A DNA stretch of 63,702 nt, counting the filler, from Hausera hauseri (lineage: Eukaryota), in NCBI GenBank assembly GCA_046269625.1. It is 12 parts of 12 records of this genome, joined end to end, with 100 filler letters (N's around TTAATTAATTAA, not from the genome) between each part and the next. Parts side by side here need not be neighbours in the genome. Positions count along the whole stretch, not along the records: positions 18,969 to 22,907 come from JBJURY010872515.1; positions 23,008 to 27,258 come from JBJURY010675773.1; 10 more parts are not named here. One strand, given 5' to 3'. Positions 3,878 to 54,442 of the stretch are shown in pieces. Each line of letters begins with the position of its first letter. Within the stretch, counting starts at the first letter, position 1. The notes beneath the pieces are model-generated. The model was not told where the DNA came from, did not search any database, and saw only the letters and a list, made by a program, of their open reading frames with translations. The translations under genes and the position numbers were made by a program.

Positions 3878-4289
3878 TGGTACATCTTTCTTTTCACATT
3901 CATAGGTCAGTAGGACTTCTCCGGTTACCCGTCCGAAAACGCCTTCTTTCATTGGAATTATTGGTGATGCTAATTCCGGATTAGCATATATTAAAGCCAG
4001 TTTAGTTCGCATGACTTCCAAGTCTAATTTGCAGTCATTTGTTATCATTTTGTGATATAACTCGGCTATTCCAGTTTGTCCTTTATAGTAGAAATAGTCA
4101 TCTCTGTTTTTCAAATAATCCTCAATTCGAATGTCTTGAGACTCGAACTTGAACGTCCTGGCGCTGATTTCCGTCTTAGCTACAAAGAATGCTTCATAAT
4201 TGATGGCATAAATTATGACATCGCATCTTGTTAGTACATCTTCACAAATTTTAATCCATGAGTGTCAGAAATCAGTAAAGTGTGGACTG
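3878..4289 (-). mobile_element. Fragment of the family-A chuvirus-like env glycoprotein, fused in frame to unrelated sequence at ~3878
   Basis: KNRDDYFYYKGQTGIAELYHKMITNDCKLDLEVMRTKLALIYANPELASPIIPMKEGVFGRVTGEVLLTYECEKKDVP is nearly identical to the ORF at 46341-47324; similarity ends abruptly after DVP. Confidence 0.92.
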
Positions 4290-8560: not shown

Positions 8561-8705
8561 GGAGTCAAAATTCAATACATTTAGCGGAGACAGATAGGGA
8601 GTGANNNNNNNNNNNNNNNNNNNNNNNNNNNNNNNNNNNNNNNNNNNNTTAATTAATTAANNNNNNNNNNNNNNNNNNNNNNNNNNNNNNNNNNNNNNNN
8701 NNNNC

Positions 8706-8960
8706 TATTTGGTGTTGTTCAAAAATCCCCGTGATCAGACTATCATTGATTATGTTGCATGACAAGCATTTCCTCACAACCGAGCCTACTTGATAGATGC
8801 ATATCATCATGTTACGACGGAGCCACGCGGATATTTGTTCACTGACTTTACGCAACAGTGTCCCGATGACATGCGTGTACAAACAGACATTTTCAATCAG
8901 AAGGGTGGTGTATGTTTCTATAAACAAATTCGAAAATCGACGAAGACACGATTGAGATAA
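8706..8960 (+). pseudogene. Polinton packaging ATPase (A32/FtsK-like), C-terminal part
   Basis: YLVLFKNPRDQTIIDYVA*QAFP...AYHHVTTEPRGYLFTDFTQQCPDDMRVQTDIF matches the Polinton ATPase C-terminus (YIVLFKNPRD...PYGYL.ID...R.RT.IF); one internal TGA. Confidence 0.85.
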
Positions 8961-8962
8961 AA

Positions 8963-9142
8963 ATGAAGAATTTCCGAAAAACGATTGTTAAACGTAAACC
9001 TATCAAGGTGGTGTCCGGCGGCAAGAAACGTGTATCAAAACGAAGCGCCGCTACAGTCAAGCGATTAATCAATTCTGTGCTTCGTCGAACAACAAAAGCA
9101 GCATCTAGACGCAAATTACCGTCACAGTGGCAACGGTTATAA
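8963..9142 (+). CDS. 59-aa Lys/Arg-rich protein, probable virion DNA-condensing core protein
   Basis: MKNFRKTIVKRKPIKVVSGGKKRVSKRSAATVKRL...; ATG lies 2 nt after the ATPase stop; below the ORF-track cutoff; VSGG resembles an adenain cleavage site. Confidence 0.55.
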   Translation: MKNFRKTIVKRKPIKVVSGGKKRVSKRSAATVKRLINSVLRRTTKAASRRKLPSQWQRL

Positions 9143-9167
9143 AAAACTACGTCTCATTAGCATTAAT

Positions 9168-9512
9168 ATGTCCACAAAAAACATGCGATTCAAATGTAGT
9201 CAGCCGTACTTTATTGATTTGCTCAAGGCACCTACGCGACATAGGCGAAACATGCTACGATCATTCCCGCAAATTGTAGTAGACGATTTGATGGAAATTT
9301 TGTACAATGTCATTGTGGGTCACGTTGACATTGGTAGTGGGAAGCGGAATTTACTAAAGTATCGAAAAAGACTCATTGGCCTTGCCAACGCCCGTAGTAA
9401 ACGGCTGAAACAAGGGGTTATGTACCAGCAAGACGGCGGATTCCTTGGTGGAATTCTACCGGTTGTCACGTCATTAATGGGTGGACTCATTGGTTCTACA
9501 GCAGTATTATAG
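9168..9512 (+). CDS. Small Polinton/adintovirus virion protein with C-terminal QxGGFL and hydrophobic tail
   Basis: ...LMEILYNVIVGHVDI...QQDGGFLGGILPVVTSLMGGLIG, a pattern typical of this conserved Polinton ORF. Confidence 0.75.
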   Translation: MSTKNMRFKCSQPYFIDLLKAPTRHRRNMLRSFPQIVVDDLMEILYNVIVGHVDIGSGKRNLLKYRKRLIGLANARSKRLKQGVMYQQDGGFLGGILPVVTSLMGGLIGSTAVL

Positions 9513-9658
9513 TATAAACAATGACGGTAAGTATAGGACAGTTCGGCGATATGGGTGCATAGTTTTCATCTATCTGTCTAGGTTTACCGAATCTTTCATT
9601 TACGCTGCGTTCTAACTGTTGTAATACAAGCAAAACCGGCACCATCGATGACAACACA

Positions 9659-10021
9659 ATGGGTGACGTGTGGTTCGACCCGCGTCATCCCGTGGGGTAT
9701 ACTGGCGTCGACAAACTGACAAAGACTGTCAAACAGACTCGGAAACAGACCCAACGTTGGCTCGGGAAACAGTTAGCATACAACCTAAACAAACTGATAA
9801 GAAGGCGGTTTCCAACTCGTGAATACCGTGCTACCGGTGTAAATAACGTATGGCAAAAGGATCTGATGGAAATGATTCCGTACGCCAGCACCAACGATGG
9901 GTATCGGTACGTGCTGACATGCGTTGATATGTTTAGTCGTTTTGCACGTGCAGTTGCCGTGAAATCTAAATCCCGTAAAGAGATTGCCGACGCTGTTCAG
10001 ACACTGATGCAGCAGCAACAA

Positions 10022-10058
<37 letters not shown>

Positions 10059-10729
10059 AACCGAAACATTTACAAACGGATTTGGGTAAGGAATTCTATA
10101 ACACCCGCGTTGCAGCGGTCTTGAAACGGTTCGGCGTAAACCACTACTCGGTGTTTTGCCAACACAAGGCTGCACTCGTTGAACGATTTAATCGAACATT
10201 GCGCGGTCGCCTAAACAAATTCTTTTCGAAGAAAGGCAACAAACGCTGGGTAGATGTACCGTTGGATATTATTCATAAATGCAATCATTCGACACATCTT
10301 GGCATAAATGGATTACGGCCGGTTGATGTAGTCGATGATTTGCACATGTGACTTTATCAAAACAACCGACGAGGACGACAGGAAATTAAACGCCCAAAAT
10401 ATAAAATCGGTAATTATGTACGTATTTCAAAAATAAGTACGACGCCATTGATTAAGAATTTCAATCAGAACTGGAGCGACGAGGCTTTCCGCATTTTGGC
10501 AATCAACTCAAAACAAACACCTGTCATGTACGTTTTAGAGGATGAAAACGGTGAGGAAACACGCAATAAATTCTACAAACAGGAACTGCAAGTACTAGCC
10601 GAGAAACTCGATGTATATCGCATTCAGGAAATTCTACGTTAGCATGACAAAGGTTCGAATAAACAATATTTCGTCAAGTGGCACGGATACACTGCACCAA
10701 ATTGGATTTTTGCATCACATATTCAATGA
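9659..10729 (+). pseudogene. Polinton retroviral-like (rve) integrase with C-terminal chromodomain; interrupted by a (CAA)n tract and stops
   Basis: WFDPRHPVGYTGVDKL, WQKDLMEM, YVLTCVDMFSRFA, PKHLQTDLGKEFYN, KAALVERFNRTL, NWSDEAF, FYKQELQ, QYFVKWHGY. Confidence 0.92.
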
Positions 10730-11805
10730 GCAGCAACAGCAGCAGCATTTACTTGGTACTTGATAATAACAGATCATTATCACAACATGACGACAATGAC
10801 GACAATACCACTAAAGAGTTTACCGTGCACTTGGATAAACCGGTCGATTTACGCCACACAGCCTGGGAAGTAGCTTTGACGGAATTCACATTTACATTTT
10901 CACCTATGGCAATACGTCAGAACAGTAGTATTTACTTTACCCGACAAGAAACAAACCTTATTTCAAGTCGTTTGCGGACAATCCGAAACAATAACCGATA
11001 TATTCTTCGCAATTATTCTGGTGAAAATTTCTCGGTTTATGCTTATTTGTCAAACTAACGTATGAAACTAATGCATTGAAATCCCATGGAAATTCAGTTT
11101 AATTCTATAGCTGATGCTCAGGAATGGGGTTTTCAATCAGTCAATGTACACTCAAAACGTCTACGGCTAGGTGGACATTTTATAATTGGTGAAAAATTGA
11201 ACCTTTCATCCGATGCAGAATCCGATATTATAGTAAAGTGGACTAAGTCAGATTCAGTTTTCCGCTCATATATTATACCACACAATTTAGTAATGGAAAC
11301 GGAACTGGAATTGTGTGAATACGTCAAGAAAACAGCTACGTTAGCCATAATGACATGTGAAATAAACGCAGATGGTCATATATCGATTATACTACATGAC
11401 AATGTTACATATTTTGCCTTTGATGAATTATTGGCTCGGAATCTGGGTTTTTAAAAACGGGAAATCTATCAAAACATTGTTGGACGATCTATTGTTACCA
11501 AAAACAAACAACAACTCTATGGAGCATTTTGCCGAATCAACATTTTAACGGACTTAACCGAATCCGTTCTCCTTGGTGGAGAACGTAAACAACTGCTGGC
11601 TTCTATCGAACTAGATTCTGATACGTAAAAAACATCGGGTGATATTGTTCGCGTTATTATGTTCAGACCCATGTACTTATCATTGTCTCACAATATTGTG
11701 CAGAGTATTTCCGTGTAAATGCTTGATGAATTTTTGGAACCCATTAAATTTTTGCTAGGGTCAACGACACACTTGACACTACACTTTAGACGTCGTTGTC
11801 GATAA
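10726..11805 (+). pseudogene. Polinton minor capsid (penton) copy 1
   Basis: N-terminal IYLVLDNNRS..NTTKEFTVHLDKPVDLRHTAWEVALTEF; C-terminal VLLGGERKQLL...PMYLSL...LTLHFRR; internal stops. Confidence 0.75.
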
Positions 11806-11853
11806 TAAACAAACTGCGTCATCATCATCATCATCATAGTCATCATCGAGATC

Positions 11854-12912
11854 ATGAGTATTTACAAGGTGTTGCCGAGAAACAGTTGTCCGATGACTCG
11901 TCCGAACAATTCCGCCAGTGAATACGTTGTAGACTGGAACAATCCTTTGGATTAATCTGGACAATGGGAGGTTGCACTGACGGTATTTAACTTTCCCTAC
12001 GCACCGGCGACATTGAAAGTTATATGAAAATAACGTACAACAAGACTGTTACTGATACCCAAACACATTCTTGTCCTGTGACACATATTAACAATAAAAT
12101 AACAGTCGGAAAATCGGGCATTTGTACAACCGAAGCAAATTATGGTATATTCGGCGTGATCGGTGTTTTTAGTTTAGATCAAAACTTACATTTTATGGCA
12201 GATTTTGAATTCACTGTTACCTTTGAGTCCTCTGAGATGGCGCAGAAATTTGGATTCAAAAATACAACATACAAAGGTAAAAATATTGAAAGTGAATATG
12301 TAATTGCTTCTAGATTAAGTCCCGTGTATTACAAGACAACGGTGAAATTTACCTATACAACAGAAAGGGTGTCAACGTCATACGTATCGATTGGAGACAA
12401 TGTCTATTGGGAATCGATAGCATATTTCTGTCAACACTTTTCAAGTCAAGACGATATTTAAAGTTTTCGAGTCAGATACAAATGGGTACAATAAATTTGA
12501 AGTGGCTAAAGATATTGTCGATATTTCATTGGACAAAGCTTTGGTCATGGTATTGGGTTTTGAAAAACAACCGTTTGAGTCAAAGACGGCGACGGCACAT
12601 GTTGCAACACTCAAACCCAAACTGAAAACGAGACTAAGTCAAATGTACATTTGCGTGAACGTCACCGAACCGATTTTGGTCGGTAGAGAACGTGTACCGC
12701 TCCTCTGTGCAATTTATCCGGAACGTAGCAAGTATACTGCCGGCGACAATGTCACTGTCAATTTCGATAATCCTATGTACCTACCTGTGGCATGAACATC
12801 TATAAACAATGTTGAAGTAAATATCCGATGTGACGCGGGCTGCCTTACTGAATTTCCGTACGGTAACACAACCAGTCTAACGCTTCAATTCCGTCGAATC
12901 CAATATGATTGA
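11854..12912 (+). pseudogene. Polinton minor capsid (penton) copy 2
   Basis: MSIYKVLPRNS..PNNSASEYVVDWNNPLD*SGQWEVALT ... MYICVNVTEPILVGRERVPLL...FDNPMYLPV...LTLQFRR. Confidence 0.8.
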
Positions 12913-13270
12913 TTCTGAAATCGTATCCATTTACAGTAAACCCCAGCAGGGCGGTGAACTGCCGTATTTCATTGATAAACACTATGGCTCTGGATGGTTG
13001 CGTACATTGTTACGTTTAGCATTTCCGGTGTTGAAGCGTATTGGAGCCGAGGCAGCAAAATCAGCACAGGACGCTCTATATGAAAAGAAGTCGATTTTAC
13101 CATCACTGAAGGAACACGCCTTGTCAGAAATAAAAAGCGCTGCACCGGAAGTCGTTGAATCAGTCAAAAAACAATTCGCTGGCAGTGGCTTGAGAAAACG
13201 CCGTAGAGCATTATCGAGCTTATCAACTATAAACAAAGGTCGTCGTTGTCGTCGTACGATTTTTGATTGA
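12905..13270 (+). CDS. Polinton core/virion protein (QxGG...GSG amphipathic type)
   Basis: QQGGELPYFIDKHYGSGWLRTLLRLAFPVLK...AGSGLRKRRR...TIF; sits in the usual slot between penton and MCP. Confidence 0.75.
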   Translation: MIDSEIVSIYSKPQQGGELPYFIDKHYGSGWLRTLLRLAFPVLKRIGAEAAKSAQDALYEKKSILPSLKEHALSEIKSAAPEVVESVKKQFAGSGLRKRRRALSSLSTINKGRRCRRTIFD

Positions 13271-13277
13271 CAGACAA

Positions 13278-13651
13278 ATGGCATATGCAAAATCTGACTT
13301 GTGTATGTTTTACAAAGGAGCGCCACAATTTGTTATTGACAATGCGGCATTTGAAGAAATTTACCCCGTTGATTCGGTTTCCGTGGCCGATAACATTGAC
13401 ATTCAATTCAACATTATAGCATCATACAATGAATACCTGGAATTGAACGATATGCTACTCTATGTAAAAGTCTTTGTTAAAAAGGATTCATCAACGGTTC
13501 TCGTTGCAACAGACACTGTAACACCGGCCAATTATCTTTTTCACACACTGTTTCAGGAAACTTCACTGACTTTAAACAGCATCAAAATCGAAGGCAACAC
13601 CAGTCTATACAGTATCAAAGCACTCATTGAAACGGCTCTGAATTACAGTAC
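13278..13651 (+). CDS. Polinton double-jelly-roll major capsid protein, N-terminal part (truncated by contig end)
   Basis: KSDLCMF..PQFVI..EEIYP..IQFNI...YLELNDMLLYVKV..PANYLFHTLF...LY..KALIETALNYS. Confidence 0.9.
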
Positions 13652-18968: not shown

Positions 18969-21400
18969 ACTGTCACCATTCTTGTCACAGAGTTGATTTA
19001 CACTCATTACAGAAAATGTTTCACAGCTTATAGCAAATATTCGACGTTTTTCCTTCGTAGAATAAAACACCACGCAATTCAGAATATCATTCGTTGTCGT
19101 TTCTGACAGTAATGATTTGTCAACAATGTTTTGGCCCTGAAATGATCGTTTACTGAAATAGTCAGGAGTTCCTGTTGATTTCAAAGAACTTGATCCCGAA
19201 GATTGCTTCCAATCATAAGACAAATTTTCATTTATTGATGTAAAACTTTGAGATAGCGGATTGTTGGCTTCGGCATATAACGAACTACAGTTCATTTCTT
19301 TCCGAAGTTTTGATGTTGTTATCTCATTGTCTTCTAATGTTTTCAAATGAGAGTAACCACGCGACATTGAAAAAGATGGTGCTGAACTGCCGTGACGGAC
19401 AGATGTCTGATTGTTATCTAACAGATCAAATCCTTTGGAACTTCGTTTAACTATTCTATATCTGTCATAAAGAGGTTTCATTATTCTTTTGACGTTTTGA
19501 TCTTCTGGTCTACCGCGATGTTTTTCAAAACATAAAAGACATTTTTGAAGTTCTATTTTTTCTTCTAAAATCTGCTCTCGTGACATTTCAGATAACGATT
19601 CCGGTCTACTTTGAGTTGTCTCTGTCTCACTAATACTTTACAGATGTGATCATAAAATTCTTCAAGAGTTAAGTTGGAACAGTCAACGCATTCAATATTC
19701 GAACTTTCATCAAATGGAGTTCTTTTCAAGTCATCATTTCCCAGGCCAGTTAATGAAGAAATACCCGACTGAAGTGTACCAGTATTCGGATTAAGTGAAT
19801 TCGTTTTATAGAAATCTTTCGTCAACGGAAAGTCACCGGAAATATTATCGAAATTAGAATCCCTATAAATAGAGTTAAGATATTCGCTCAGCCGGACGTA
19901 CTCTGCAAGCCACTGTTGCACTTGAGAATCTCCGGTTTTTTCGAGACTCTGAGGACGAAAACCATGGTCCCGTTCGAATTTGTTCTTGAAATTATTGATT
20001 CTTGTCAGTAGGAAAGTAATTTTTTCCTTTATTCGATCTATGTTTTGAATATTTTCTCCAATTACATATTCTCCATTGCCCGATAATTGTTTGTGAAGAG
20101 AGTTTTCTTTCATTTCGTTTTGTGATTCACTCTCTAAATCATCTAAATCGACAGGCCCTTTCCAGTCTTGGAATTCATCAGTAACATATGCATTTTCTTG
20201 TCGATTGAGTAAATAGAAGTAATCTGGATCATTTTTGTCCAACCTACTACCTTGAGTGACGATTAATGGTTTTCGTCTTAAACTCTTAACATTTATCGCA
20301 CCCTTTTTCAATTTCGTTCTCGGAGCAGCTTTCGGTTCGTTTGAAGATTTTCCGGAAAAGTCAGTAAAATCATTTTTATCTAGTGAAGTTTCCTGAGAAT
20401 TTTTGACAACTATGGAAATGCCTTGAGGCAAGCTAGATATTCGATTGATTTTGAGATCATCATCATCATCATTGGTAGCATGTCCGTATTTTAATTCAAC
20501 ATCATCGTTCATATTGGGTATGGAAAGACGATTCTTTATACAAGTACTGATAACCTGCTGAATATTGGCCGACATACTCGTCGGCAGAGGCACTGGGTGA
20601 TTATCATTTGAACTACTAAATTCGTTATCACCACTTGTCGACGGACTCGATTTTCGACCGTCGGTTGAAAATGTTTGTGTAATCTGTGGACTTTCGGCAT
20701 ATTGACGAGCAGTTGTTCCATATACATTTGAGTCAGATACAGTGGAACCATTTAAAAATTTTGTTTTATAATTCAGTATAATTGCTGTAGTTATTGAATT
20801 TAAATGATCGATATATTTCAATCCGGACTAGATAGATACTAAATATACAAACACAAAAATAACAGCATCAAACCTCATCGTTTGGAACAAACATTATTGT
20901 CGGTGTAAATACCATCGCGAGATTTTTTTCATCCATTAAATTTACTTTATGTTCCGAAATTTTGATCAGAAAATTTATTAAATATTTTAAGAGATTATAA
21001 TTTTCATCCGGCAACGTTCGTAAAATCTCTCGGAATTCGTTAATGCATAAATCCAATTGTTTATTATGATGCATGTAGATATCAAATAAGCTAATTGTTA
21101 CATCTTCTGGTATTAGAAGTCCAGAGATACTCCGAAGAAACATTTTCAAAACGTCACAAACGGTAGGAACGTCAAGTTCACCACATGCACTCAATTCTCC
21201 AGTTTGGTCTAATCTAGATTTTAAATTTTTCGGCTGCAAGTCTCTTTCCACAGGTTCGAAAAATTCCCAGTTTTAATTCCATGCATCAAAATATACTCAC
21301 ATATATCTACAACAATTTTAGGAGCTTTGAATTTTTCATGTTTAATTAGCTGAGACAATCGTACTGTATAAACATTAGATGTTGTTTGTTTGACATCACC
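18969..21400 (-). pseudogene. FAM13A: FAM13A/B-like RhoGAP, intronless with several frameshifts
   Basis: RhoGAP (PKIVVDICEYILMHG, DVPTVCDVLKMFLR, LPDENYNLLKYLINFL, NLMDEKNLAMVFTP) plus FAM13 motifs INNFKNKFERDHGFRP and MSREQILEEKIELQKCLLCFEKHRGRP...MKPLYDRYRIVK. Confidence 0.85.
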
Positions 21401-22777
21401 AGAAATATTCTTTCTACTATATAGAGGACTTGTTTGTTCTTCAATTTGAGAAACCGAAACCTTTCCGTAGCATATACTACCATTTATTGATTCATTATAT
21501 ACCTTTGGAAAATTTTCCGTAAATTGAAAGCATCTACTTGTAACTTTTGACAAGGTTTTCAATGACGAGTTATCTAAAATCTTTTTGCATTTCAAAGGAA
21601 GACTGTTGCCGATTGACTTTGTAGCCAAATTACCTGAACATAATACTATTGGACTTTTATCTACAGTTTCAAGTGCTTTACATGTGCTGCAATTATTGGA
21701 CGTATTTTTATACCGATTACAATATCGACAATTTTTCTTAAATATCTGAAAAGCCTTTGAACATATTCGCCAGTGCAATAAAATTCCCATTATCGAAGAG
21801 GTATTCACGTAAATTTCACCACAAAAACAATTGATATATATTTTTTTACTTAACGAAAACGTCAAGAAATGGAGATAGGTCAGTATGAAACAGTTGTTTA
21901 AAACGAGTTCCCAGAATGAATTGTAGTTCTCCAAAAAACATCCACATCGACATATGTGACCACAATTGCCCGGCGAATTGATAGTTTGACACGCATGATT
22001 ACGTTTTACTGAAATGTCTTTGAATCGCATTGAGCATTTAACTTCCATCAACAGTTTTTTATTTTCAACCAACAAGTGGATTTTACTTTCTTTTGTTTCT
22101 TTTAGAAATGTATTTGAAGATTTGAAATCAATGCATTGTTGATCCACAATTTGTATTATTACTGTCAAGGCCTGGATTGAGTTGAATTCATTTAAATAAG
22201 TATAGTAAATCCCTAGCAATTCAATAAATTTATAAGGCAATGTCATTTTGTTAATAATAATAATAAAATACCTTACGTTCAAATCACACAATTTTAATAC
22301 ACATTTAATGACGACTTCTTTTCTGTCAAATATTCTCATCTTTCGGATTATATTTCCAATTCTGTTCTGTCTAATTTCTATACATTTTTCTAAATGGTTT
22401 TGAAATAAATAATTTTCAAATTTTGAAATAAATAATATTTTATTTTCGATAAGTTTAAACATTCCATAAATTTTAAGGCTTGGATCATCACAGATTGAAT
22501 TTATCATGAATCTCGAAAATCTAACAAATGTATCAATTTTCTCCAAAGTTATGTAGTATATTCTTTCTCTCTTTGAACATTGGAGTGACTTCGACATTAT
22601 TTTAAACTTTCGTAGGAATCTTTCTACAAGTGTCCCACCTGAGATGCCAATTGATGTTTGTCTCAGATTAAGGTATTTGAAAAAATCAAATACCTTAATC
22701 TGAGACAAACTTTTTTTTTTGCACATACTTCTAATTTCCATTTTTTCATACGGGAAGAAACAACCTTTGAAGCACAA
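21401..22777 (-). CDS. Unrecognised ~460-codon open frame (Cys-rich second half) fused 5' to the FAM13 RhoGAP domain
   Basis: Part of the 518-aa ORF 21221-22777; a stop-free run this long in AT-rich DNA is unlikely by chance; no family recognised. Confidence 0.45.
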
Positions 22778-23747
22778 AAAATTTTATTGATTTCTCACGG
22801 AAACTAATTTCATCTCAATTTCAAAAAACTTTTTTTACAACACTTAAAACAAAACAAGAATTCTTTTTTACAATATCTACATATATAAAAGTCTACATAA
22901 AACACGANNNNNNNNNNNNNNNNNNNNNNNNNNNNNNNNNNNNNNNNNNNNTTAATTAATTAANNNNNNNNNNNNNNNNNNNNNNNNNNNNNNNNNNNNN
23001 NNNNNNNAATTAATTTAAAAAAGAATGAACTAAAAATATTTGAAATTCAAAACTAGGGGTATATATGATTTTTTGCAAATGCAAAGGACGCGGCCGCACC
23101 GGGGGGCATAAATCAGTAATAAAAACCTAACCCACCTGATTTCGAGTGTCGGAATCCTAGATATTGAATTTGTCCATATGTGGAGTGCTTTCCCCAGAGG
23201 ATCGTCGACATCTATCAAATATTGGTTTCCTCTTGTGATTTCCAAGCTGATGTCCTGTTTTCGAGTCATAATTTCGAGTTTATGAGCAGTCTTCTCCAAT
23301 TCTTTGTTCTATTCAGCCCTTTTCTTTTGTAATTCACCAAGCATACTCGATATAGGAATTGTCGATAAGACGTTATTAGTTGTATTCACAGATATATTAG
23401 ACATATCACTACTGGTCATGCCATCCTCAATTTCACTAATTACAATATTCACGGACACCATCAGGACATTGATCTCTTTCAGCATTATACTAGAAACAGT
23501 CTGTTGAAGCAGTAATCCTGGGATTATTTGTTTCCGTTTGCCAAATCGAGATTGAACGATCCGTCGAATAAAAGAATAGATTATATAATCAAAAGTCTGT
23601 GTTAAACGTTCGATAACAACTTGACACAGCAGTTCGCAACTAGTGGCAGTTTGATCAGATTTGGTGTAGGACATTGATATGGTATGTTCATCACTATTTC
23701 GATAATGTAATGACAGTTCACTGCTACTTTCCCGAGTGGTCAAATGA

Positions 23748-23990
23748 TTGCTTTCCTTTGTTTGACGGACGAATTCATTTGCAATTTGATCACTCCATTC
23801 ATTTATCAACGGCATATTTATATCATCGATAAAAAATGACAATTTTTTACCAGCCGGCGGACTAAACGTTGTGCCTACTCGTTTCTCAACAAAACACTCA
23901 ATGGAGTGCAGAATTAATGCTGGAATAGTAGCAGATGAAAAGTTAAAAGATTTAGAAATATGAGATTCAGGATTATATTTTGCCATAAGC
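23748..23990 (-). pseudogene. DNAH5: ~80-codon internal fragment of an axonemal dynein heavy chain (DNAH5/8-type AAA3)
   Basis: [75 protein letters not shown] (cf. [21 protein letters not shown]...[44 protein letters not shown]). Confidence 0.9.
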
Positions 23991-24815
23991 GATAGCATTC
24001 TAGGATCATTTGTGACTGAAGTAACAACTCCATGTGCAGATGAGGTCGTAGGTGACACATTGAGAGACAATTTATATGAATCTAAGGCCGAATTTAAAAA
24101 ATTATCATTATTAAATTCGTTCATTGGAGACTGTTGGGAACCATGTAACCAATTAGTAATTGATTGGAATTGGTTATTAAAAATGCCATTACCAAATGTG
24201 GATGCATTGCTAGGAAACGACTGATCTTGACTTAACGAGATATTAGATATAGAGCAAATATTAGTCTTAGATATATATTCGGGATTTATTTCTTTTTCTT
24301 TTGCATTATCTTTTATAATTTTCAGCAAATGTGAATATATTTGGGGTGCCTCGTCGCTTTTGAATTCAGAGTACTTTAATTTAGAATCATATTTCGATAC
24401 ACCTTTTTCCTGAACATAGTTTAAATCTATGCGTTTATTTAACTTTCGAGTTTTCAAAATGCCGGCTGCAAGTTCCCGGGACATACCTGATAGGTCAATT
24501 GTTTCATTAGTATTACTTGGGCCTCCTGTAAACCATTCAGGTTTCGAGTCACTCAAATTGACATCGTTCGTATCTTTGTCACATCCATTTCGTGATTTTG
24601 ATTGATAAGAATAATACTCAACTGGTGAATTTCGATTACGATTAAATTCATATGACACATCCTCTTCGTACCCGTATCTTTGTTTAGAATTGTAATAATG
24701 GGAATGTCCCGGACCGTAGGAATTGTGACGCTTAGAACCGTCAGTATACCAAAAATATTTATAATCACCTCGCAACCGCTTTCTGTATCTTTCATTGTAA
24801 AAATGTTGACAGCTT
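23991..24815 (-). pseudogene. EIF4ENIF1: Fragment of eIF4E-transporter (4E-T/Cup-like) including the Cup-homology motif
   Basis: [20 protein letters not shown] at ~24485-24545 (cf. EPEWFSAGPTSQSETIELTG), preceded by an R/Y/D-rich region; boundaries approximate. Confidence 0.7.
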
Positions 24816-26733
24816 TTATTTTTCCTAAAATCGCTAATCGGTCTGATTAGACTGACATGTATAAGGAAAACATCAGTTGCATAATCTGCTGTGGACTTCA
24901 AAAAGTAATCCAATAGCTCTTCGTCAATTTCATCGAAATATTGAGCTCTTATCCGTGAAATGAAGGACTTGGATTCTTTCATCATCAAAGAAGATTCATC
25001 TGTTTTATCGGAATTATAGAAATTCTCTAAATGAACAGTTGAAATAATTTCTTCAATGGACTTTTTAATATTGTCGATCAATGGTTGCATGACAGTGGTT
25101 TGTACTTTCAAACAATGATCGAGCTTTTCATGAATAATCGATTCGTTTATTTCAGACAATCGCAGTTGGAGAATAACACTCTGATTAATGGTGTTCTTTA
25201 ATTTACTAAGCAAATTTATAATCTTAAAGTTCGCCTTTTGATTGTTTGTCGCAGGTGAAATTACCTGACCTGCATCGGTATCTGAAATAACACGACCTTC
25301 GAATTTCGTACAGATCAAATCAATCATTTTCCCGACATTGCGACAAGCTTGCATCAGTAAATTAGAATCCACAGAAGCCAAAGTAATTTCACTGGAAACA
25401 TTTCTCACAAAATTAACAACATCTTCATCGGATGGCGAATGTTCGTCTTTATCAAATGCAACTTCGACGATTTCAAATAATTTTGACAAAGATTTTTATA
25501 GAAACATCTGTTCATATTCCAAAAGAAACGTTCGAAAGTATTTTTGACTTGTCAAATTTTCGTATTCTATCGACATTTTATTACTGTCTGATGATACTTC
25601 AACAAGAGAAGACAGTTTACTGTTGAGATCGATAAACAATTTCAACAGTTTCGGATACTCATTTTCCAGTGTCTGTCGAAGGAATCCTGTTTGATCTGAC
25701 GACAGGGAAGTTTTAAAAGATTCTTTAAGAATGTCTGACATCCACTTCTGATAATAATACCCGACATAAGATACCGTATCGGTAAATAGTTTATTACAAA
25801 ACTCGTTCATCTCATATTTTTCTGAATCGTTTTGTAAATTCTCAATTTTGGCCAACAGCAAAATAAGGGACATGTTTGCCTCAATATGGTTGACCAACTT
25901 ATCTATCACAGTCCAGAAAGCAGCTCTGAATGCTGCCCCTTGACCAGAAGTCAGAATTGCAGCTTTTCCCGGTCCTTTAACGCCACTCGGACTTGGTGAT
26001 GCCTTCTGTACTGATGCCAACAGAGTTCTTATGTCCAGAACTTGTTTTACATTTGAGGAGAATTCGTTTTGAGAATCAATGACAATTTTATTAACACTAT
26101 AAGAGAGAATCTCCAAATTTGAAAAAACTTGCATTGGGATTCCAAACATTGGTTACTGGTTTCCTTGAACAATTTCACCATATTCCATGCCTCGTCGGTA
26201 AGACTGTTGGCGGTAAGTGTTACGAAATCGAGATGTTGCGCTAAAAATTTTATTCCAGAATAATCTGTTGTACTAAAAACATATCTCAGTTCATTGACAG
26301 TTGTTGACGCTTTGCTTGTATCTCTTTTTTGATCTTGCAATATCGTTACTAAACTACTTATCCGATTTATTTTCCTCAAAGTATCGCAAATGTATTGCAT
26401 ATTAGTCAACTGTCTAATCTTCGTTTCCAAACTGTAATACGGTTCAGCAAGCTTTGAACGAATTTTGTCGGTATTATTACGCAAATTACTCTTTCTGCTG
26501 TTCATCATTTCCAACACTCCTTCCAACTTTTCAATGCCAACTGCATGACTCATCAAATCGTTGTGTTTTGACGCAATATGACATTGTATTTTTTCATGAA
26601 GACTGTTGATCTCTGACTCAATTTGTAACAGAACCTTTGACGTATCTTTCTGCTTTAAAATTAAATTTGCTAAAGCTGATGCATCTATGCTATCATAGAA
26701 AATAGTAATATAATCATAGTTTGATGAATTCAT
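24816..26733 (-). pseudogene. COG5: COG5 (conserved oligomeric Golgi subunit 5), near full length, intronless, one frameshift, one in-frame stop, C-terminus missing
   Basis: [84 protein letters not shown]. Frameshift near 26150; TAA at 25496-25498 followed in frame by KSLSKLF. Confidence 0.9.
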
Positions 26734-27079
26734 AGAAAATTACGATAATCACAAAAAAGGTTAATCCAAATAAATATAATCCCACTTCTGACACCAGTGT
26801 CGTTTTCACGTATTTGAATTAATTCCACAAATGGTACGATAAAATTCCAAAAAAAGAACGAATTTAGAATAAAATTCCAATCACGTATGAATTCCAAAAA
26901 GGGCTAACTGTATAACTTTTTATTAGTTACAATTAACAATTAATGATTATTTTCAAAACATCAATTTCTTTTTAAAACAACATATATACATGATTGTCTA
27001 TATCTATATATATCATTAGCCAGTTTCCGTACAATTTGTGCGTTTTCGAAATTTCTTCCGTACTTGGATTGTCTATTTA

Positions 27080-27191
27080 CTGACAATTGTAATTTCATTC
27101 CAATAATAAAATATTCTTCGGCAACGTTGAAAGTCCATTCCCTGACAATTATAATTTCATTCCAATGATAAAATATTCTTCGGCCACGTTG
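27080..27191. repeat. Direct repeat, 2 copies of ~50 bp (period ~62)
   Basis: ctgacaattgtaatttcattccaataataaaatattcttcggcaacgttg and ctgacaattataatttcattccaatgataaaatattcttcggccacgttg. Confidence 0.85.
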
Positions 27192-28108
27192 TGATCCGTA
27201 CTGACAGATAACAGAAAAGAGCGTTTTTATCCAATTTGAAAATTCTCAATAGTCAAACNNNNNNNNNNNNNNNNNNNNNNNNNNNNNNNNNNNNNNNNNN
27301 NNTTAATTAATTAANNNNNNNNNNNNNNNNNNNNNNNNNNNNNNNNNNNNNNNNNNNNCAGAACCTGTGTCAATTAAAACGTAAACGTCCCAATCTTCGA
27401 TACTGATTTTTGACGAAGGGCCTTACTTCTATTACAGTTACGTAACAATTTGATGCAATCTTCGGGCGCTTAATCGTCGATATTTTATGGCCGTTTATTC
27501 TGATTTCTGAGGATGTTACTATGTTTTCAGTTAATTGTTTCAGTTCTCCGTTGTGGTATAATTCATTGCTTACAATGTTTGAATCTTCTGATTCGTGAGC
27601 ACTGATTGGCAGTTTTTGGTTATTTAAGTGTAGTTTTGTATTTCGAAACGTTTGCATTCTTAGATTTCCTCAGACTGTTGGTGTAGTTTCTATATTTTGG
27701 GGTATTTTTGGGGAGTATATTGCTATGATCATTTACCGACTGTCGGCGGCGAGATGCGGGATTTTCTCTATTACCGTTCATTTTCCGTAGAGCTCTATTG
27801 TTTTGTTCCTTCGGAAGGGTCTTCAAAACTAAATGGTTTCCTATAGATTTCTATCTGGTACGAAGTCATCGATCGTTTTTCGCAATCTTCGTATACAGTC
27901 GCAGTAGGAGGCAATATTGGCAATAGTTCTTTTATAACGGGGTACGCGTTGTGCCGATTTAATCCGGAAACGGCTTCTATTCCCTTAGGCTCGTCATCAT
28001 CTGAACTATTTTTTATATCTTTGAGTTAAGAAGTTTACGTCCATATAGAAATATAGGTTTCCTTCGCCTTACTATTATGATAGCTAATATGTCGCTCTAC
28101 GTTCGTTT

Positions 28109-29890
28109 TCACCTGCTTTCTTCATAAGCTTTTAAAATTTTTCCAAGCGGCGTTATAATTGCAGTCAAAATTTTACATGAAAATCCAGTTAACGTAAATA
28201 TCTCGTAATCATTTATTACTGCTTGAATTAAGGCCTTGATTAATTGTACTAGAAAATAGATCGCTAAAAATACACATGCTGCCTGTCCAAAAATTAAAAA
28301 TCTTCCCAAATTTTGTACAGTATTTCTGTAGTTACTCGTTGATAGTGGTTTAGAACACGTAATGATTCCTATTTTGCTTGGTAGCGTGTATCGTCTACTA
28401 CTGCACCCATGGATCGATTAAGTTCATGCGTGCGCTGACGTGGAAAAGCGACAAATTGTCTGAAGGCTTCAACTTCCTTCGGTCTGTAAATATCTTTCGA
28501 CGAAATATCTTGAAATTTGTCATCCGTTATCCCTTTTACAAGATTAGTTCCTGTTAATTTGTTAGGGGTGACTGTTATGCCTGCATTTGGTAAACTTACC
28601 CAATCCGTTTCACTACGTCTGAACATTGGTTCTACTAAACCTGCTTTACATTCTTTTAAAATTGTTGGCTGAGTTGCGTTGGCTAACAAAACTCTCGTAA
28701 ATGGCATGGCTAATCGAGGCATTGTTCGAGGTACAAAACTGACATTTCCTGTATAGGACGGCATCTGTGATTCGGCCGAAAATTCCTTCTTATTGGAATT
28801 ATCGATTATACTAACTCAGGATTGGCATAAATAAAAGTCAATTTTGTTCGCATAATTTCCATGTCTAATTTACAATTGTTCGTTATCATCTTGTGGTATA
28901 GTTTGCTTATTTCAACTTGTCCTTTGTAGTAGAAATAATCGTCTCTATTTTTCAAGTAATCTTCAATTCGAATGTCCTGTGCCTCTTTAATTTGTAAGTT
29001 CTTCATTTATTTCCATTTCTGCGACGAAAAATGCCTCATAGTTCGTGGCAAACATCACTACTTCGCAATGTGAGAGTATTTCTTTATGAATTTTTATCCA
29101 TGAAGATCGGAGATTAGTATGGTCGGTATAGAGTGTTCTACCACGTCTTCGCGTGTCCTTGTATTACTATCCAGCTTATTCACAGTGTTTACCAGTAGTC
29201 TCGTTGAATTTTAGTTCCTTGATTTTAATTAAATTACAGTCTCTTCTAGAGGGAGGTTCCCATATTATAACTGAGCTTCTAAAAGCACAAGTTCCACCCT
29301 ATAGATGATATTTTTGGTTTTTGGTATACAATTTGGTAACGCTATGAAACATCACTTTATGTGCTTGCATTTCAGTTTCGTAGAAATCTACAACTATTAC
29401 GTTTGATTCTATTCCTTTGCCAATGTCATACACTGCGTCATTACAGTTTACATTATGCATATCTAGTTTCCCGACTGCCACTTTATATGCTCTGATTATT
29501 TTACCTTGTTGCATTTTAAGTTCCATACCATCTCACTGTAGTCTACCTGTTTCTCTAGCTTGTTTACAATGCTGGTGTTCTAGATTCATGAGAATTGGTG
29601 GAATTGATGGTTTTGTTATTGATGAATGTCTGTGAATTAGTCCACAGTGGAAAATACTGCGGGATCGTTGCAACATACATTCTATTCCATCTAGTGATAT
29701 TAATTATCGTTGTTGGTATAGGAAGTAATTTTTCTCTTTTGTCTCTAATCTGTGCGGTCTAGCGTCTTCACACATCTCTAGGTCAGTTAAGGAATATTTC
29801 TGACCGACTTTAAATTCATCACAATCATAGACAGTAACAGCACTTATTTGTTTTATTAGCTTCATCAAGGTGAGTATATTAATTAGCCAT
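28109..29890 (-). pseudogene. Chuvirus-like envelope glycoprotein (family A, copy 1)
   Basis: Internal signal WLINILTLMKLIKQISA|VTVYDC..YSLTDLEMC, IFHCGLIHRHSS, NNCKLD, IYRPKEVEAFRQFVAFP, TM GRFLIFGQAACVFLAIYFLVQLIK; stops, frameshifts and an internal deletion near 28780. Confidence 0.85.
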
Positions 29891-30589
29891 TTAAATTCGT
29901 TTCTCCGGTTATTATGAACTGTTGTCGTCAGATTTTGTACCATATCTTTGAGTCTGTTATTATTACCGGAGGATGGTTTATCTTCCTCCTTTTCGAACAA
30001 TTTTGACCAATTTACTTTTCGCAGCAATTTCCTAGCAGCTTTCCATACTAAACTTATGGCCTTGCTAAACTCATTTTCTCGACTTGGGTTCGTCTTCTTA
30101 GCTAAGTTCAGCAATACTTTCCTTAATTTTTCTATTGTATTCTCTCGTCGGTTAAGGTGCTTTTTGATAATTTAAAACGAGAATTTCTCATCGTTCTAGC
30201 TGCATTATATGTCGCTTTCTCTTTATAGTCTAACACGTCACCACGGAGGCTGGCGTAGTTCACGATGCATATTAAATTTTTTATCAATTCGACTAATTCT
30301 TCATTATCCGCATTGCAAGTCGGTATCGAGGTTTGTCTTAATTATCTAATCAAGTCTCCATTGTAATCAGTTTCTTCGCGTATTTTCCTAGGTCAACCAA
30401 TTGGGCGCTTCTGTGTTACAGTAGTTGGTACGATTTAACTCTGTGTCATTAATTTTTATCACATTGTTCCTTGTCCTCATCTGTTCGCAAGTACCTAAAG
30501 TACATTGCAACATCTCGTACTCCCATGATCTGTCCTACACATTGTTCAGTTTTGGCCTTGCGTGTGGCTTCTTTAGTTTGTTCGTTAGC

Positions 30590-30820
30590 GTTTACAGCCA
30601 CTATTCGGTTTGTTTCGTCGGGTATCATCCCAATGTCTATTAATTGCTCTAGTTCATCTAAGATTCTGCCTCTAAAATAGAATCTATAGTTTAGTTCATT
30701 TCTACCACTATTGTTTAGGAACCATTCCTTTACGTCTCTCACAAGTGAACACGTTGTAAATTCGCATTCTTTTTCGTCCATCCACTCAGACGACATCTCC
30801 ACTCTTAATGTCACCTGAGG
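30590..30820 (-). other. Ubiquitin-like domain in the retroelement polyprotein (copy 1)
   Basis: LRVEM...EFTTCSLVRDVKEWF..NSG...YRFYFRGRILDELEQLIDIGM...RIVAV aligns by eye with ubiquitin TIENVKAKIQDKEG...[21 protein letters not shown]. Confidence 0.65.
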
Positions 30821-32791
30821 TTTAGCCCTTAAGAATTTAGCGTATTTTTTATTAAAAGCTTTGGCACAGCGCTATAAATTAATTTTTTACTCGATAATTT
30901 AGTTAGAGAAGGAATAAGTTGTCTTAGCCTATTTTTAGTATTACTTACGTTAATTAGTTCGATGAAATCCTTGTCAGTTAGTGCTGAATCCAGAAGCATA
31001 TCCATATTGAATCTCTGACTCTGGGTACATTTCTGTTTCACATAGGCGTACCGGAGTTTTCGGGTTTTCGACAACTATCGCATCAAAATACGCATCCCAT
31101 TCTACATCATTCTGGTTTTGGGAAGTCTATTGTCGATGGGAATGTCTGGTGGTTGGATTCTATTGGCGTTTTGTACCATTTCTCTTATTTCACGTAATTT
31201 CTGTTGCATCTCGGCCATTCGTGATGTTCGGAAGCAGAGTCCGTTACCGGAAGTCTGATATAACAAGGTTAACAAGTAGCCACAATCATCTGCTTGAATA
31301 AATCTTTGTTGATAATTAGTTAGCTCGAACGTTATTTCTCGTTGACATCTCTGTATGAATTCTGATTTATTTCTGATTCTGTCAGAGCATATTTGTTTCT
31401 GTACGGATCCAATTCTCTTGTTAGTTCCTCTATTTCGGAGTTTCTTTGGTTGGAGCGAATTTGGGTTTACTGAGCGTGACGTATCTGATTCTGAAATTGT
31501 CCCAATTTTTCGTCGTCAATTTCGGCTNNNNNNNNNNTCTACTAATTGCAACGTTAACTTACGCATCTTGAAAATTCTGGAGTCTGGGTCAGTTTCGTCA
31601 ATAGTCTCTTCACGAACCCGATTTCCTCAGAAGTAAGTTTGTGATCTTCGGTTATTTCCATGAGTTCGGTATGCCATTTTTATCTGACCCTTTTATCCGT
31701 TTATTGGGATACCGTATTAATTTCAAAACTCATATTGTCAGTTCTTAATCTGGACAAATATCTAATAGTTTTATTTCCTAGATTGAAATTTCGTTCACAG
31801 GTTCAGGCCATTTTTTCGATTAGTTGGCTATGATAGGCTTCGTCAGTATCGTTTTCCCTAATGTTTTATAAGCATCCTTTAATCGTCATCTGGGTCTTTT
31901 ATAAAACTCAATCGTGCTTACGTAGCCAACTTCATCCTTGTACTCGTCGAATTCTAAAATACAAGTTTTTATTATGTCTTGAGTTTTTTCATTGTAAACA
32001 TTATTCGGTTTCTGAAATACAGATTTATGATCGTTTATCGTTTTCAGTCTGGATACGTGTCTCCAGGTTTTCGTATCGTTCGGTTGCGGTAGAAGCAACT
32101 TTAATCATTTCCATTATGGGAGGAATGTCTATCGGGTTTATACCATCTTGTTCATAAATCGGCTTTCCTCTGAGTCGATTAAGCATTGCAGACCTAATTC
32201 TGCGCATTACGTGCTCTAAATTACGTTTTACTCTTTTCAGCTTCGGATTTGCTTCTAGTATGGTCAACAATTTCTCAGCTTTCTCCACTTTTACAACGAC
32301 ATTATCTTTGTTTTTACTCCATGTTTCTGAAAATTCAACTCACTCGTGACTGTATCGAGTGATTGTCAAATGGCCTGCCATTTCCACTCACGCTCCGCTG
32401 AACACCCATACAGAAATACGCGTCACTTGTTACCTGACACGCTGCTGAAATTATACCGCATTTTCTCCTAGTCCAGGCCTTACAATTCCCTGACAGGGCA
32501 TGGTCCACACAATGGAAGCATCTCCCTAGAGGAGTGCAGGAAAGGCTTTCACTTTAAACTCTTTAACAGAATGCAAACTGTGAACTCTGTCCGTTCGGTG
32601 ATTTCGTTTGTCTAAAAATGAGATTACACGTTTTCTGCTCTAAATCTGACCCGAGGAATAATTTTGCTTGTGATTTTCTTTTCTTTTTTTTNNNNNNNNN
32701 NNNNNNNNNNNNNNNNNNNNNNNNNNNNNNNNNNNTTAATTAATTAANNNNNNNNNNNNNNNNNNNNNNNNNNNNNNNNNNNNNNNNNNNN

Positions 32792-39849: not shown

Positions 39850-41680
39850 TGAAGGGAAACATCACAGCATAATTTGGCATGTACAACCACGTACTTTCTT
39901 TATATTTCTGGCAGCTCCTGTATGTCTTAATATAACCACTGTGGTAGTATTTATAACATATATACCGAAAACTCTAGGCATAACTTGACCAAAAATAAGA
40001 AATTCATTCAAGAAATCGTAAAGAACCTTTTTAGCTGTTCTTTCTAAATAGTCGCTTGGTAGTAGCATTCAATAATTAGGCACACCATCTGATCCTTTTG
40101 TAACAGTATATACAAATTCTGTAATGACTTTTTCTCGGATGTTCTGAAATAATACCTGTTTTCTTACCGCTTCCAGGTAAGAATATAATCCACTGGTGGG
40201 AAGTTCTCTACTTACTTTAAATTTTATACCTTTATCCCATGGTAATAATCCAATTGTCTGTGGTATGTTCATCATAGTTGGTTGGTGTGTTTTGGTCCAT
40301 CTTCCATCACTGAGCTTGAAGGCTAGATAGAAGTCTTTGTAACACGGTGCAGAGGTGATATTGTTGGGTAAGAACAATTTTCGAGCGATAGGATCCACAT
40401 ATCCGATTTGTATTATATTTTTCTCAATATACTGAACCATTAAATCGTTTGTGCAATTTTCTCTTGTAATTGTTATTGGGGTTACTTCAGTTGGCGGGCA
40501 TTGGTATACGTGAAGTATCTCGCCTTGTACTCTACCAAGTGTTCTGGGACGATATCCCATAATTATGGTTATATGCTCCGGGAATTCTCTGGCTAATATT
40601 ATGTCATGCTGATTCAATTTTTGAGTAATTTTGCAGTTTCTCAACACCATCATGTTTTATAACTCAACTAAATCCATTTTTGCGGTGTGATAAATATAAT
40701 CTCTCTTGTATTCGTATATAAGTGCCACTTTATGTCTTCAGTTGGTAGCTTTCCAGTATCCGCAAGGGTTACTCTCGTTACAAATAATTCTTCATAAGAT
40801 GTATAATAAATGGCATTTAATCCGAAAGTCGATATTGCTCATTTGCGCGACAACACAATTCCGTCTTTATCGCTGGATGGCATTAGGACTTTCAAGGAAG
40901 TTGTTTGCTTTAAGGTTCTTGGAGTAGGTAAACTTATGTTATGGTTATGTACAGGTTTTTATATTCGTCAACATAATATAAATCACCTTGTATTTTGTAC
41001 ATAGATACGTGTTTAAGGAAATATACTGGGCATATCACTGATGTTTTTCCCAGACTAGCGTAGATTCTCCTAATGCACACACTCCATCAGAATATGTACA
41101 AGATGGTGCAGTTAACATTTTTCCTGTAATTGCATCGAAATTTATTTTATATTCCTTTATGGTGACGGTGAAATCTTCTATTTGTACTACAGCCGATTCT
41201 TTTTGTCCATTTATCATCATACTTTCTTCTTCTTACGCTCTACCATATCCGGGCCATATTGGTGAACAAACTCGTTTTCCAATGCATGTCTACACGGGGT
41301 GTTGTAAACCTACGTGAATTGAATCCGTGTTTTTTCTACAATTTTCAGCAGCAATTGTTACGGGTTTCGGTAGTCCTTGTGGAATAATTACAGAATTCTA
41401 CGAATTATGACTACAGATATAAGCAAATACTACCTTATTAACTTGGCATTCCTTTACTTGCACTTGTTGATAACTGATTCTTTTATACAAATTATAATTG
41501 TAAGGACATTCCTTCTTTAATGATATCGGGTTTGCATTCTGACATTTACCTATATCTACCAGTGAAAGTCTGGCTATTATTTCGGGATTGGAACAATCGA
41601 AACTTCTAACGCTTTCGTAATTTTCATGCTGCTCAATGCTATTAAGTATAATAGAAAATCAATGATTTGTACCATCCAGT
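39850..41680 (-). pseudogene. Chuvirus-like envelope glycoprotein (family B)
   Basis: Signal FLLYLIALSSMKITKA|LEV(F)DCSNPEIIARLSLVDIGKC after correcting one frameshift; CTYSDGVC; RNCKI; GRVQGEILHVYQCPPTEV; CTNDLMV; SGLYS; TM FLIFGQV..FGIYVI. Confidence 0.82.
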
Positions 41681-44592: not shown

Positions 44593-47500
44593 GCGCCAAA
44601 ACTTTTAATCAAAGAATATGCCGAATTTTTAAGGACAAGGCCCGAAGAAGTAATTAGAGTAAAAATAACGGCGGACTGGATGGATGAAAAGGAACAAGAA
44701 TTCACTACACACTCCTCTGTAAAGGATGTATTACTGTGGATAAAGAATAATGGATACGCCCATGAACTAAACTATAGACTCTATTTTAGAGGAAGGATAC
44801 TGGACGAATCGGAGTTACTGATAGAAGTTTGAATTATTCCAGACGAGATAAATCGATTAGTGGTGACCATAGCTATCGACGAGACAAACGAAGAGGCTAT
44901 AAGGAAAGCTAAAGCCGAGCAGCAACTAGGACAAATAATAGGAGTCCGAGATGCGGTAGTATATTTCGAGTACTTACAAACAGGTGAAGATAATGAGCAA
45001 TACGATATGTATTTAGTACCCCTTACTGATAACACACCTATCGTAACAAAACAGAAACGTCCGATCGGTAGACCGCGGAGGGTACGAGAGGAGAACGACT
45101 ACAATGGAGACCTGATTAAAGAATTGAGGCAAATGTTCATACCAACCTTCAGTGCAGATAATGAGGAACTGAACGAACTAATGAAGGATTTGATACGAAT
45201 AGTAAGCCACTCCAACCCTGACGGTGATATGTTAAATAAGAAAGAGAAGGCCATATTTAATGCAGCCAAGGCCATGAAAGGCCTCCGGTGCAAAGTAACC
45301 AAGAGTACCTTAAGTGATGAAACGATAATTGAGAAAATTATGGTAGAAAATACCATGGAGAAACTGAGGAAGGTGTTGCTGTATCTGGCCATCAAAATTA
45401 ACCCGAATAGAGAAAACTAATTTAACAAAGCAACTAGCTTAGCAAGGAAGGCCGCTAGGAAACTGCCTCGAGAAGTGGACTAGACGAAGTTATTTGAAAA
45501 AGAAGAAGGTCATCAAGCTAGACTTTCCTTCGATAGCAATAGATTCGGAGACCTGCTACGAAATCTAACTGGGAATTACAGAGGAAATGAATCGAATTGG
45601 TTAATAAACTTTCTGGTCATGACGATATTGATAAAACAAATGGGTGCAGTCACGGTATATGATTGTGACAAATTTAGACTTGGATAAAAGTACTCACTAA
45701 TGGACTTGGAAATGTGAGGACGCGAGACCACACAAATTAGAAACAAAAAAAGAGTTACGTATTATACCAACAACGTAAACTAATTGCATTGGATGGGGTG
45801 GAATGTATGTTGCGACGATCTCTCAGCATCTTTCATTGTGGGCTGATACATGGACACTCATCAATAATCAAACCGACGACTCCACCAATTCCGATTAATT
45901 TTGAACGACAACATTGTAAGCAAGCAAGAGAGACGGGAAGAATAAAGTGGGATGGCATGAAACTAGAGATACAAAAAGAGAAAATAGTCAGAGTATGCAA
46001 AATAGCAGTCGGAAGGCTAGACATGCACACGGGACATTGCCAAGGTGCAGAATACGATACCGGAAAGGGATTAGAGCCGAACGTCGTAGTAGTAGATTTT
46101 TATGAAACTAAAATGCGAATGCAGAAAGTGGTGTTCCTTAGTGTTACTAAGCTTTACACCGAGAACCACAAATGCCATATTCAGGATGGCACGTGCCCAT
46201 TCCGGAATTCCGTAGTAATTTGTGAACCTCCAGCCAAGACTGATTGTAATTTTATTAGAATTAAAGAACTGAAATTCAACGAGACAACGGGAAAACGATA
46301 GATAAGTAGCCCGGAAACTAACTCTAAAACGCGAGAGAATGTGACCGAAAAATCCACACCTACAATACTGATTTCTGACGATCATGGATTAAAATTTATA
46401 AAGAAAGACATGCTCTCTAGATGCGACGTCGTAATGTATGCTACCAATTACAAAGCATTTTTTGTAGCCGAGACAGAAATAAACGCCAGAACGTTCAAAC
46501 TCGAGACTCAGGACATCCGGATTAAATACTATTTGAAGAACAGAGATGACTATTTCTACTATAAGAAACAAGCCGGAATAGCCAAATTATACCGTAAAAT
46601 GATAACAAACGACTGTAAATTGGATTTGGAAATCATGAGAACTAAATTAGCTCTAATATATGCAAATCCCGAGTTGGCATCACCAATAATTCCGATGAAG
46701 GAAGGTATTTTTGGACGAGTAACCGAAGAAGTATTATTGACGTATGAGTGCGAAAAGAAAGACGTACCAATTGACGTGGAAGAAAAGAGGTGTATACAAG
46801 AACTTCCAGTGATATATCAGGACGTACCGAGATTAGTAACACCAATTACCAGAGTGCTGTTGGCAAACGCCACTTTACCGACAATTTTGAGAGATTGCAA
46901 AACGACTTTAGGAGAGCCAATGTTCAGACGAAGTGAGACTAATTGGGTGATTCTACCAAACGGTAATATTATCGCACCACCTACCAAGTTGACAGGAACA
47001 AACCTGATAAAAGAAATAACCGATGATAAGTTCCAGGATACAGCCGCAAAAGGTATTTATCGACCAAAAGTAGTAGAGGCATTTAGACAATTTCTTGCTT
47101 TTCCCTGCCAACGTACCCATGAATTAAACAGAGCGATGTATACAATATTAGAGGATTCGCGCTGTCAGTTAAAATGGGAGTCATTGCTTGGTGTTGGCTA
47201 TTATAAAAAGGTAACTACAGAAATTTTATACAAAATTTGGGGAAGATTCCTAATATTCGGACAAGCTGCATCAGGATTTCTAGCGATATACTTTCTAATT
47301 CAATTGGTAAAAGCTATAATTTAGTCAATCATAAATGGATATGAAATATTTACCTTTACATGATTTTCTTGCAAAATTTTAACGGCTATTATCATTCCTT
47401 TTGGCAAATTTTTAAAGGATTATGAAGAGAATAAATGGAAAACAAATGTAGAACGACACGTTGGCTATCACAATAGGAAACGTAAAAGACGCCTAATTGA

Positions 47501-54017: not shown

Positions 54018-54122
54018 TGAAATAAATGTATTTTTATGAAAAATGGTCTTCATTTTACTACTTATCATATTTTCATTATAGGGGGAAATTAAACAACACA
54101 AATTACGTAATAATCTACTTAT

Positions 54123-54413: not shown

Positions 54414-54442
54414 AGGAATCTATATTTAGTAACAAATTTTGC

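Follow-up and report, generated by a model that had tools for sequence, protein, structure and literature searches.

A chimera of COG5, 4E-T and axonemal dynein pieces behind a tRNA-Leu primer-binding site in Hausera hauseri: a probable remnant of a non-autonomous LTR retrotransposon

A single contig of Hausera hauseri (positions 23008-27258, 4251 bp, 34% GC) carries, behind an exact primer-binding site, partial coding sequences of COG5, 4E-T and an axonemal dynein, followed by a coding-like tail. With a probability of about two in three, we consider this contig to cover the 5′ part and the middle of a non-autonomous LTR retrotransposon, now decayed, the interior of which was replaced by pieces of host mRNAs. 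The window analyzed (63,702 nucleotides) consists of short contigs with N44-TTAATTAATTAA-N44 linkers between them, the linker being a six-frame stop flanked by N44. As the contigs are merely concatenated, features located on separate contigs are not genomic neighbours. The whole chimera falls within the one contig, both ends of which lie inside repeated sequence. Self-BLAST of the window revealed no further copy of this contig, and the other contigs are unrelated to the chimera (31 ORFs scanned): they include Gypsy pieces and a Monjiviricetes-type fusion protein, a ppaC-like gene and Rep-like ORFs.

Gene pieces on the minus strand

All pieces are carried by the strand of the primer-binding site; they are sense, partial and intronless, and no A-tract was found at their joints. 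The COG5 coding sequence (24810-26733, intronless) was delimited by Pfam and by alignment to a homologue, and extends from the ATG to about residue 668 of 804, that is, from the start codon to about 83% of the length. The preliminary description had taken this piece for the C-terminal half of COG5; it begins at its own ATG (26733), and hence is truncated at the 3′ end. An L1-type processed pseudogene was rejected, as COG5 keeps its start and lacks the 3′ 17%, and there is no complete 3′ end with poly(A). The upstream frames match COG5_N (E 5.9e-14) and COG5_C (E 2.8e-18) by Pfam, and residues 1-227 of P0001 align with residues 432-668 of 804 of Acropora COG5 (E 1e-21); the best named match, Paragonimus at 33%, is barely above Acropora, a weak indication that this animal is a flatworm. 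COG5 runs over three minus-strand frames, and the two lesions reported before could be placed, the frameshift near 26150 and the stop at 25496-25498. The control previously invoked for them, that Rep and ppaC are clean, is invalid, both being on other contigs and silent on error rates here.

Downstream of COG5, 4E-T, dynein and tail follow without a stop in a minus-strand ORF spanning 25495-23309 (728 codons stop to stop). Its existence had been reported with a slightly shorter extent (23309-25489, 726 aa). The 4E-T (EIF4ENIF1) piece is a middle fragment located at 23993-24809, with an approximate 3′ border (24019-23993). It corresponds to residues 272-493 of P0001, which match Pfam EIF4E-T (E 1.7e-10, model positions 208-369 of 663), and includes a conserved motif matched to PDB 5anr chain C (E 0.0026). 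The next piece (23753-23992) is of the DNAH5 type and, as described before, 80 codons long: residues 502-589 of P0001 match Pfam AAA_7 (E 3.4e-19), and the best PDB match is DNAH5 2602-2693 (E 3.7e-28). This axonemal dynein AAA piece begins past the P-loop (GTAKT) motif, so that it is without P-loop, and it deviates at residues common to the aligned dyneins. The reality of the chimera, with one ORF passing from COG5 through 4E-T and DNAH5 into the tail, is therefore upheld by Pfam, PDB and alignment alike, and so is the earlier statement that the pieces share strand and frame and lack introns, all of them being pure coding sequence in sense orientation on the minus strand.

The tail (23309-23752, 145 codons, same frame) ends at a stop at 23311-23309 and has no Pfam or PDB match. 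It shows no stops in its own frame as compared to 7-19 in the other five frames, and none of 20,000 shuffles was open, which indicates that it derives from a gene. After the stop, 92 more open codons are read in the same frame (23030-23308), possibly a separate piece. Word-index searches gave no candidates for P0002 against longer proteins (0 of 1810) or for P0001 1-500 against shorter proteins (0 of 3445); these blanks are weak, because HMMER finds 215 COG5 relatives. The Rfam search returned two sub-threshold chance matches and no spliced leader.

Primer-binding site and LTR context

The preliminary description of the locus had left out the primer-binding site, which we found at 26796-26779 on the minus strand: an exact 18-mer complementary to the 3′ end of tRNA-Leu(CAA), with 1e-6 expected from base composition. 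One base upstream, a CA closes an AT-rich repeated arm (26797-27258, minus strand), which is cut by the contig end and contains AATAAA and a 62-nt tandem pair (27062-27185). An arm ending in CA and followed by a primer-binding site is the layout of an LTR end, and from its position upstream of the site the arm is likely the 3′ part of a 5′ LTR. On the other side of the site, a 45-nt leader without ATG (26734-26778) contains the switch point between element and COG5 somewhere; the COG5 ATG, 45 nt on, is the first after the site and occupies the position where gag would start. A perfect primer-binding site before COG5 points to an LTR retrotransposon. The 19 nt at this site equal the start of an antisense probe to tRNA-Leu(CAA) published in PMC7997516.

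The contig showed no 3′ LTR, polypurine tract or target-site duplication, and no long terminal inverted repeat, the longest inverted arms being of 25 nt at 72%; the element ends lie off the contig. A search of 89 ORFs revealed no gag or pol remnant on the contig and one weak match elsewhere in the window. Resemblances between the arm and either the 3′ end of its own contig or the head of contig 1 were discarded, 31 and 32 of 500 shuffles, respectively, being as high.

A second, decayed stack is present at 1-4289 (minus strand) of the window and consists of a Gypsy env-like piece, an AT-rich stretch, a remnant of a primer-binding site and then gene pieces. The env-like fragment is 81% identical to 46366-46769; a purine-rich tract and a TG are found near 3770, and the remnant (3620-3611) is 10 nt long, with 0.09 expected. 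The cargo, all in the same sense, comprises acyl-CoA dehydrogenase (E 1.4e-5), PAN3 (E 3.7e-9) and a piece without identification. Relatedness between the arm of this stack and that of the chimera was not detectable by shuffle comparison.

Gypsy-like elements in a decayed state, in which a fusion glycoprotein of Monjiviricetes (chuvirus) type lies upstream of pol, are located at 44593-49304 (plus strand), 27800-30865 (minus) and 40069-40656 (minus), two copies being 68-72% identical; this lineage is a candidate helper for the non-autonomous element. The region 8705-13651 (plus) includes an integrase core (rve) by Pfam and further ORFs, which we take to be Polinton/adintovirus-like. At 18969-22907 (minus), a frameshifted RhoGAP gene without introns (Pfam E 7e-25), presumably FAM13-like at its C-terminus, is preceded by a 520-codon ORF mostly without identification, and this contig is possibly another retrocopy chimera. 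Two ORFs at 53925-59302 (minus) resemble CRESS-type Rep, with HUH and helicase motifs recognized by eye and no Pfam match at E 0.01. The ppaC-like gene (DHH plus DHHA2) is bacterial-looking and lies on a contig of 47% GC (59403-63702) together with a Gypsy RNase H fragment (61786-62445), this being either a mixed contig or a transfer.

Joints, copies and exon borders

Three public runs contain the stretch (X1, X2 and X3, with word shares of 0.67, 0.09 and 0.06), as contigs of unrecorded kind. All are of 2024, and X2 and X3, with a depth of 2-6, are maybe of the same campaign, their independence being uncertain. Depth was present in X1 in 30 of 30 bins; a hole was noted at 25848-25989. Three of the four joints are bridged, with at least 31 letters on each side, by 6 of the 24 pieces listed (273 further pieces exist): the joint between primer-binding site and COG5 by X1 record 8 (26638-26837) and X3 record 21 (26604-26834), the 4E-T/DNAH joint by X1 record 2 and X2 record 14, and the DNAH/tail joint by X2 records 11 and 12. 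For the COG5/4E-T joint, the same 24 pieces include no bridge, and X1 record 3 ends exactly at 24809. Three X1 contigs diverge from the window beyond about 24810, which places a switch point there; as judged by eye, the sequence with which they continue stays open in the frame of 4E-T over the ten codons visible. A further common break in X1 contigs, at 23304/23305, is weak, the shorter side having only 22 letters. A 501-nt skip in X1 (23304-23806) was rejected as an intron, since it rests on these 22 letters and its ends are not GT..AG.

The abundance of the modules in X1 is graded. Summed depth, which is not a copy number, is 133-476 over 23008-24001, 22-87 over 24002-24995, 0.9-31 over 24996-26841 and 44-110 over 26842-27258. 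Taking into account that up to 11 X1 contigs have the same alternative letter at one site, and that 125 of the 263 X1 records aligned are under 95% alike, the 3′ module exists in many diverged copies. Each of the three breaks of the window copy (the frameshift and the two stops) is absent from some X1 contig; these contigs are unphased, and an intact reading of COG5 in X1 could come from the native gene. The stop at 23311-23309 is not read in 862 of 882 of summed X1 depth. At several sites the whole depth of X1 disagrees with the window, so that X1 probably represents a different individual. X1 record 6 (25612-25804, depth 7.9, with 49 loose letters at one end) is about 84% identical to the COG5 piece and represents an older copy, a paralogue or another species.

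Exon borders were judged among the 150 COG5 relatives listed, out of 215. Of the two most identical matches (65 and 54%, on contigs of 569 and 905 bp), one stops and the other starts at residue 135 of P0003, the latter running as far as LQ/V. They look like neighbouring exons, the flanking residues being compatible with GT/AG sites as far as amino acids can tell, and the window reads through both of their borders. Among the short COG5 matches, 15 of 70 end at residue 151 and 6 of 70 at residue 115, and the window reads through both; since the two nearest relatives also do so, this lineage has lost introns. Of the 18 short dynein matches, 9 end at residue 571 (GDQ/V), a border which is read through by the window and by 3 of the 18 (P0172, P0174 and P0179). 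X1 record 7 (26318-26571), the sole contig at 26492, crosses the residue-135 border by 19 nt unbroken. The host's own COG5 may be without this intron, or the parent was filtered out of the X1 comparison. As the host COG5 may lack the intron, absence of introns is no proof of an RNA step, and we consider the read-through of borders no more than suggestive of intron loss via RNA.

Origin of the chimera and its meaning

We propose that the reverse transcriptase of an autonomous Ty3/Gypsy-type element would have switched from element RNA onto co-packaged mRNAs, and that capture was probably serial, the dynein and tail module being acquired first, then 4E-T and then COG5. Dynein plus tail is placed first because it has the most, and the most diverged, copies. 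In the case of COG5, the enzyme would have entered the mRNA in the middle of the coding sequence, continued to its 5′ end and jumped back to the element immediately behind the primer-binding site, which would explain why the start of COG5 is intact and its 3′ end is missing. The element would then have been copied in trans, between captures as well, and the present copy would since have gained the frameshift and the two stops; most likely it makes no working protein. Serial capture of mRNAs by an LTR element had already been suggested, and the primer-binding site, the sense orientation of the pieces and the read-through of exon borders speak for it; the mechanism itself is one that we infer.

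Several features of the chimera have precedents. The retrocopies described by Tan et al. 2016 (PMC5131818) are partial, truncated at the 3′ end, derived from several parents and re-amplified as non-autonomous elements; examples are CG4799_CG11924_r of the fly and, in the mouse, the four-gene "Super" retrocopy. Their longest ORF often keeps the parental frame, as it does in 14 of 17 young cases in the fly. The likeness to our contig lies in partial mRNAs replacing the interior of the element, 3′ truncation, several parents and re-amplification; COG5, in keeping its 5′ end and losing its 3′ end, behaves as the fly retrocopies do. The chimera described here departs from those retrocopies in several respects: the first switch occurs within 45 nt of the primer-binding site, the contig retains no ORF of the element, a single frame is common to at least four pieces, and the modules are of unequal abundance. 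Moreover, both LTRs and microsimilarity are shown there, whereas our contig offers a single putative LTR arm. Maize Bs1, as presented in the same text, is an LTR element with exonic pieces of three genes, several copies and common switch points; it belongs to a plant and is cited as possibly protein-coding, whereas the differences between copies here look neutral. In the open literature we found no paper on LTR-captured host-gene chimeras in planarians. Our assignment to the class of LTR chimeric retrocopies is supported because a primer-binding site, sense partial cargo and amplification in X1 coincide, and the chimera is likely a fossil of the published process, serial template switching as in multi-parent LTR retrocopies.

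It is improbable that the fragments were instead stacked at the DNA level, being copied into the remnant of an LTR element through repair or ectopic recombination in a genome with few introns, with the primer-binding site as a bystander; a tinkering locus and Pack-type or Helitron capture would be routes to it. Record 7, if host COG5 is intronless at the tested border, would fit such an origin. According to Weisman (bioRxiv 10.64898/2026.08.09.743762), transposon fragment stacks arise mainly from ectopic recombination, and the Drosophila tinkering loci described there are, as here, stacks of gene fragments beside transposons which yield composite ORFs. Those loci have genomic flanks, but our pieces consist entirely of coding sequence in the sense direction and in frame, and no such flank, intergenic sequence or intron was seen; in addition, COG5 lies 45 nt behind an intact primer-binding site and long terminal inverted repeats are absent. 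Less probable again is that an LTR element became fused before genomic COG5 by insertion or deletion, and that its spliced read-through RNA recombined with a sister element in which 4E-T, dynein and tail were present. Such transduction is the route of oncogene capture by retroviruses. It would account for the intact COG5 start behind the primer-binding site and for the lower X1 depth over COG5, but it requires an element at the native COG5 promoter, which was not seen, and leaves the other three pieces unexplained without template switching.

We give little credence to the possibility that the assembly created the COG5/4E-T joint by merging two different members of a collapsed repeat family into a mosaic. 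The contig is short and the family multicopy, and the missing bridge among the 24 pieces listed and the three diverging X1 contigs fit a mosaic; however, the joint is in frame and connects unique coding sequences of two genes that are unrelated, no repeat common to both was seen at it, and the other three joints recur in other runs. Least credible is that the unbroken form of the family is a selected fusion gene, e.g., a COG5-anchored 4E-T/DDX6 decoy, of which the present copy is a pseudogene. Apart from the unphased unbroken contigs of X1, this reading has in its favour that the 28 alternative letters of the 3′ module create no stop, where 1.3 would be expected, a difference that is not significant. 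Against it stand the 35 copy differences classed, which are unphased and come from the best-supported 40 among 242. Of the 28 located in the 3′ module, 7 are synonymous, against an expectation of 21.7% (P 0.41), and 10 affect third positions (P 0.46). The dynein piece, lacking its P-loop and altered at common dynein residues, argues in the same direction. Variation among the copies looks neutral and lends no support to a selected fusion protein; an advantage of a translated chimeric protein, one possibility raised in the preliminary description, finds no backing in it. That description had also held in-frame junctions to be favoured. Since three in-frame joints arise by chance at 1/27, and it was the long ORF that led to the choice of this locus, the joints do not demonstrate a frame bias.

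Under the preferred reading of a decayed LTR retrotransposon with captured mRNA pieces, the locus is a clear example of the class, with an intact primer-binding site and modules of graded abundance. Such copies can mislead annotation, as false paralogues of COG5, 4E-T and dynein, and could yield small RNAs against host genes. Without its breaks, the open frame here would run through about 1,230 codons contributed by at least four genes. A tentative, rather unlikely extension is that, in H. hauseri, non-autonomous LTR families keep adding host mRNA pieces at the interior 5′ end and are selected, at the level of RNA rather than protein, for a long open frame from the gag position; the basis would be escape from nonsense-mediated decay or a gag-like translation needed for packaging. 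If true, these families would be a self-propagating exon-shuffling machine with a built-in frame filter, and whether the cargo of retrotransposons is filtered for open frames without selection at the protein level is a question that can be tested.
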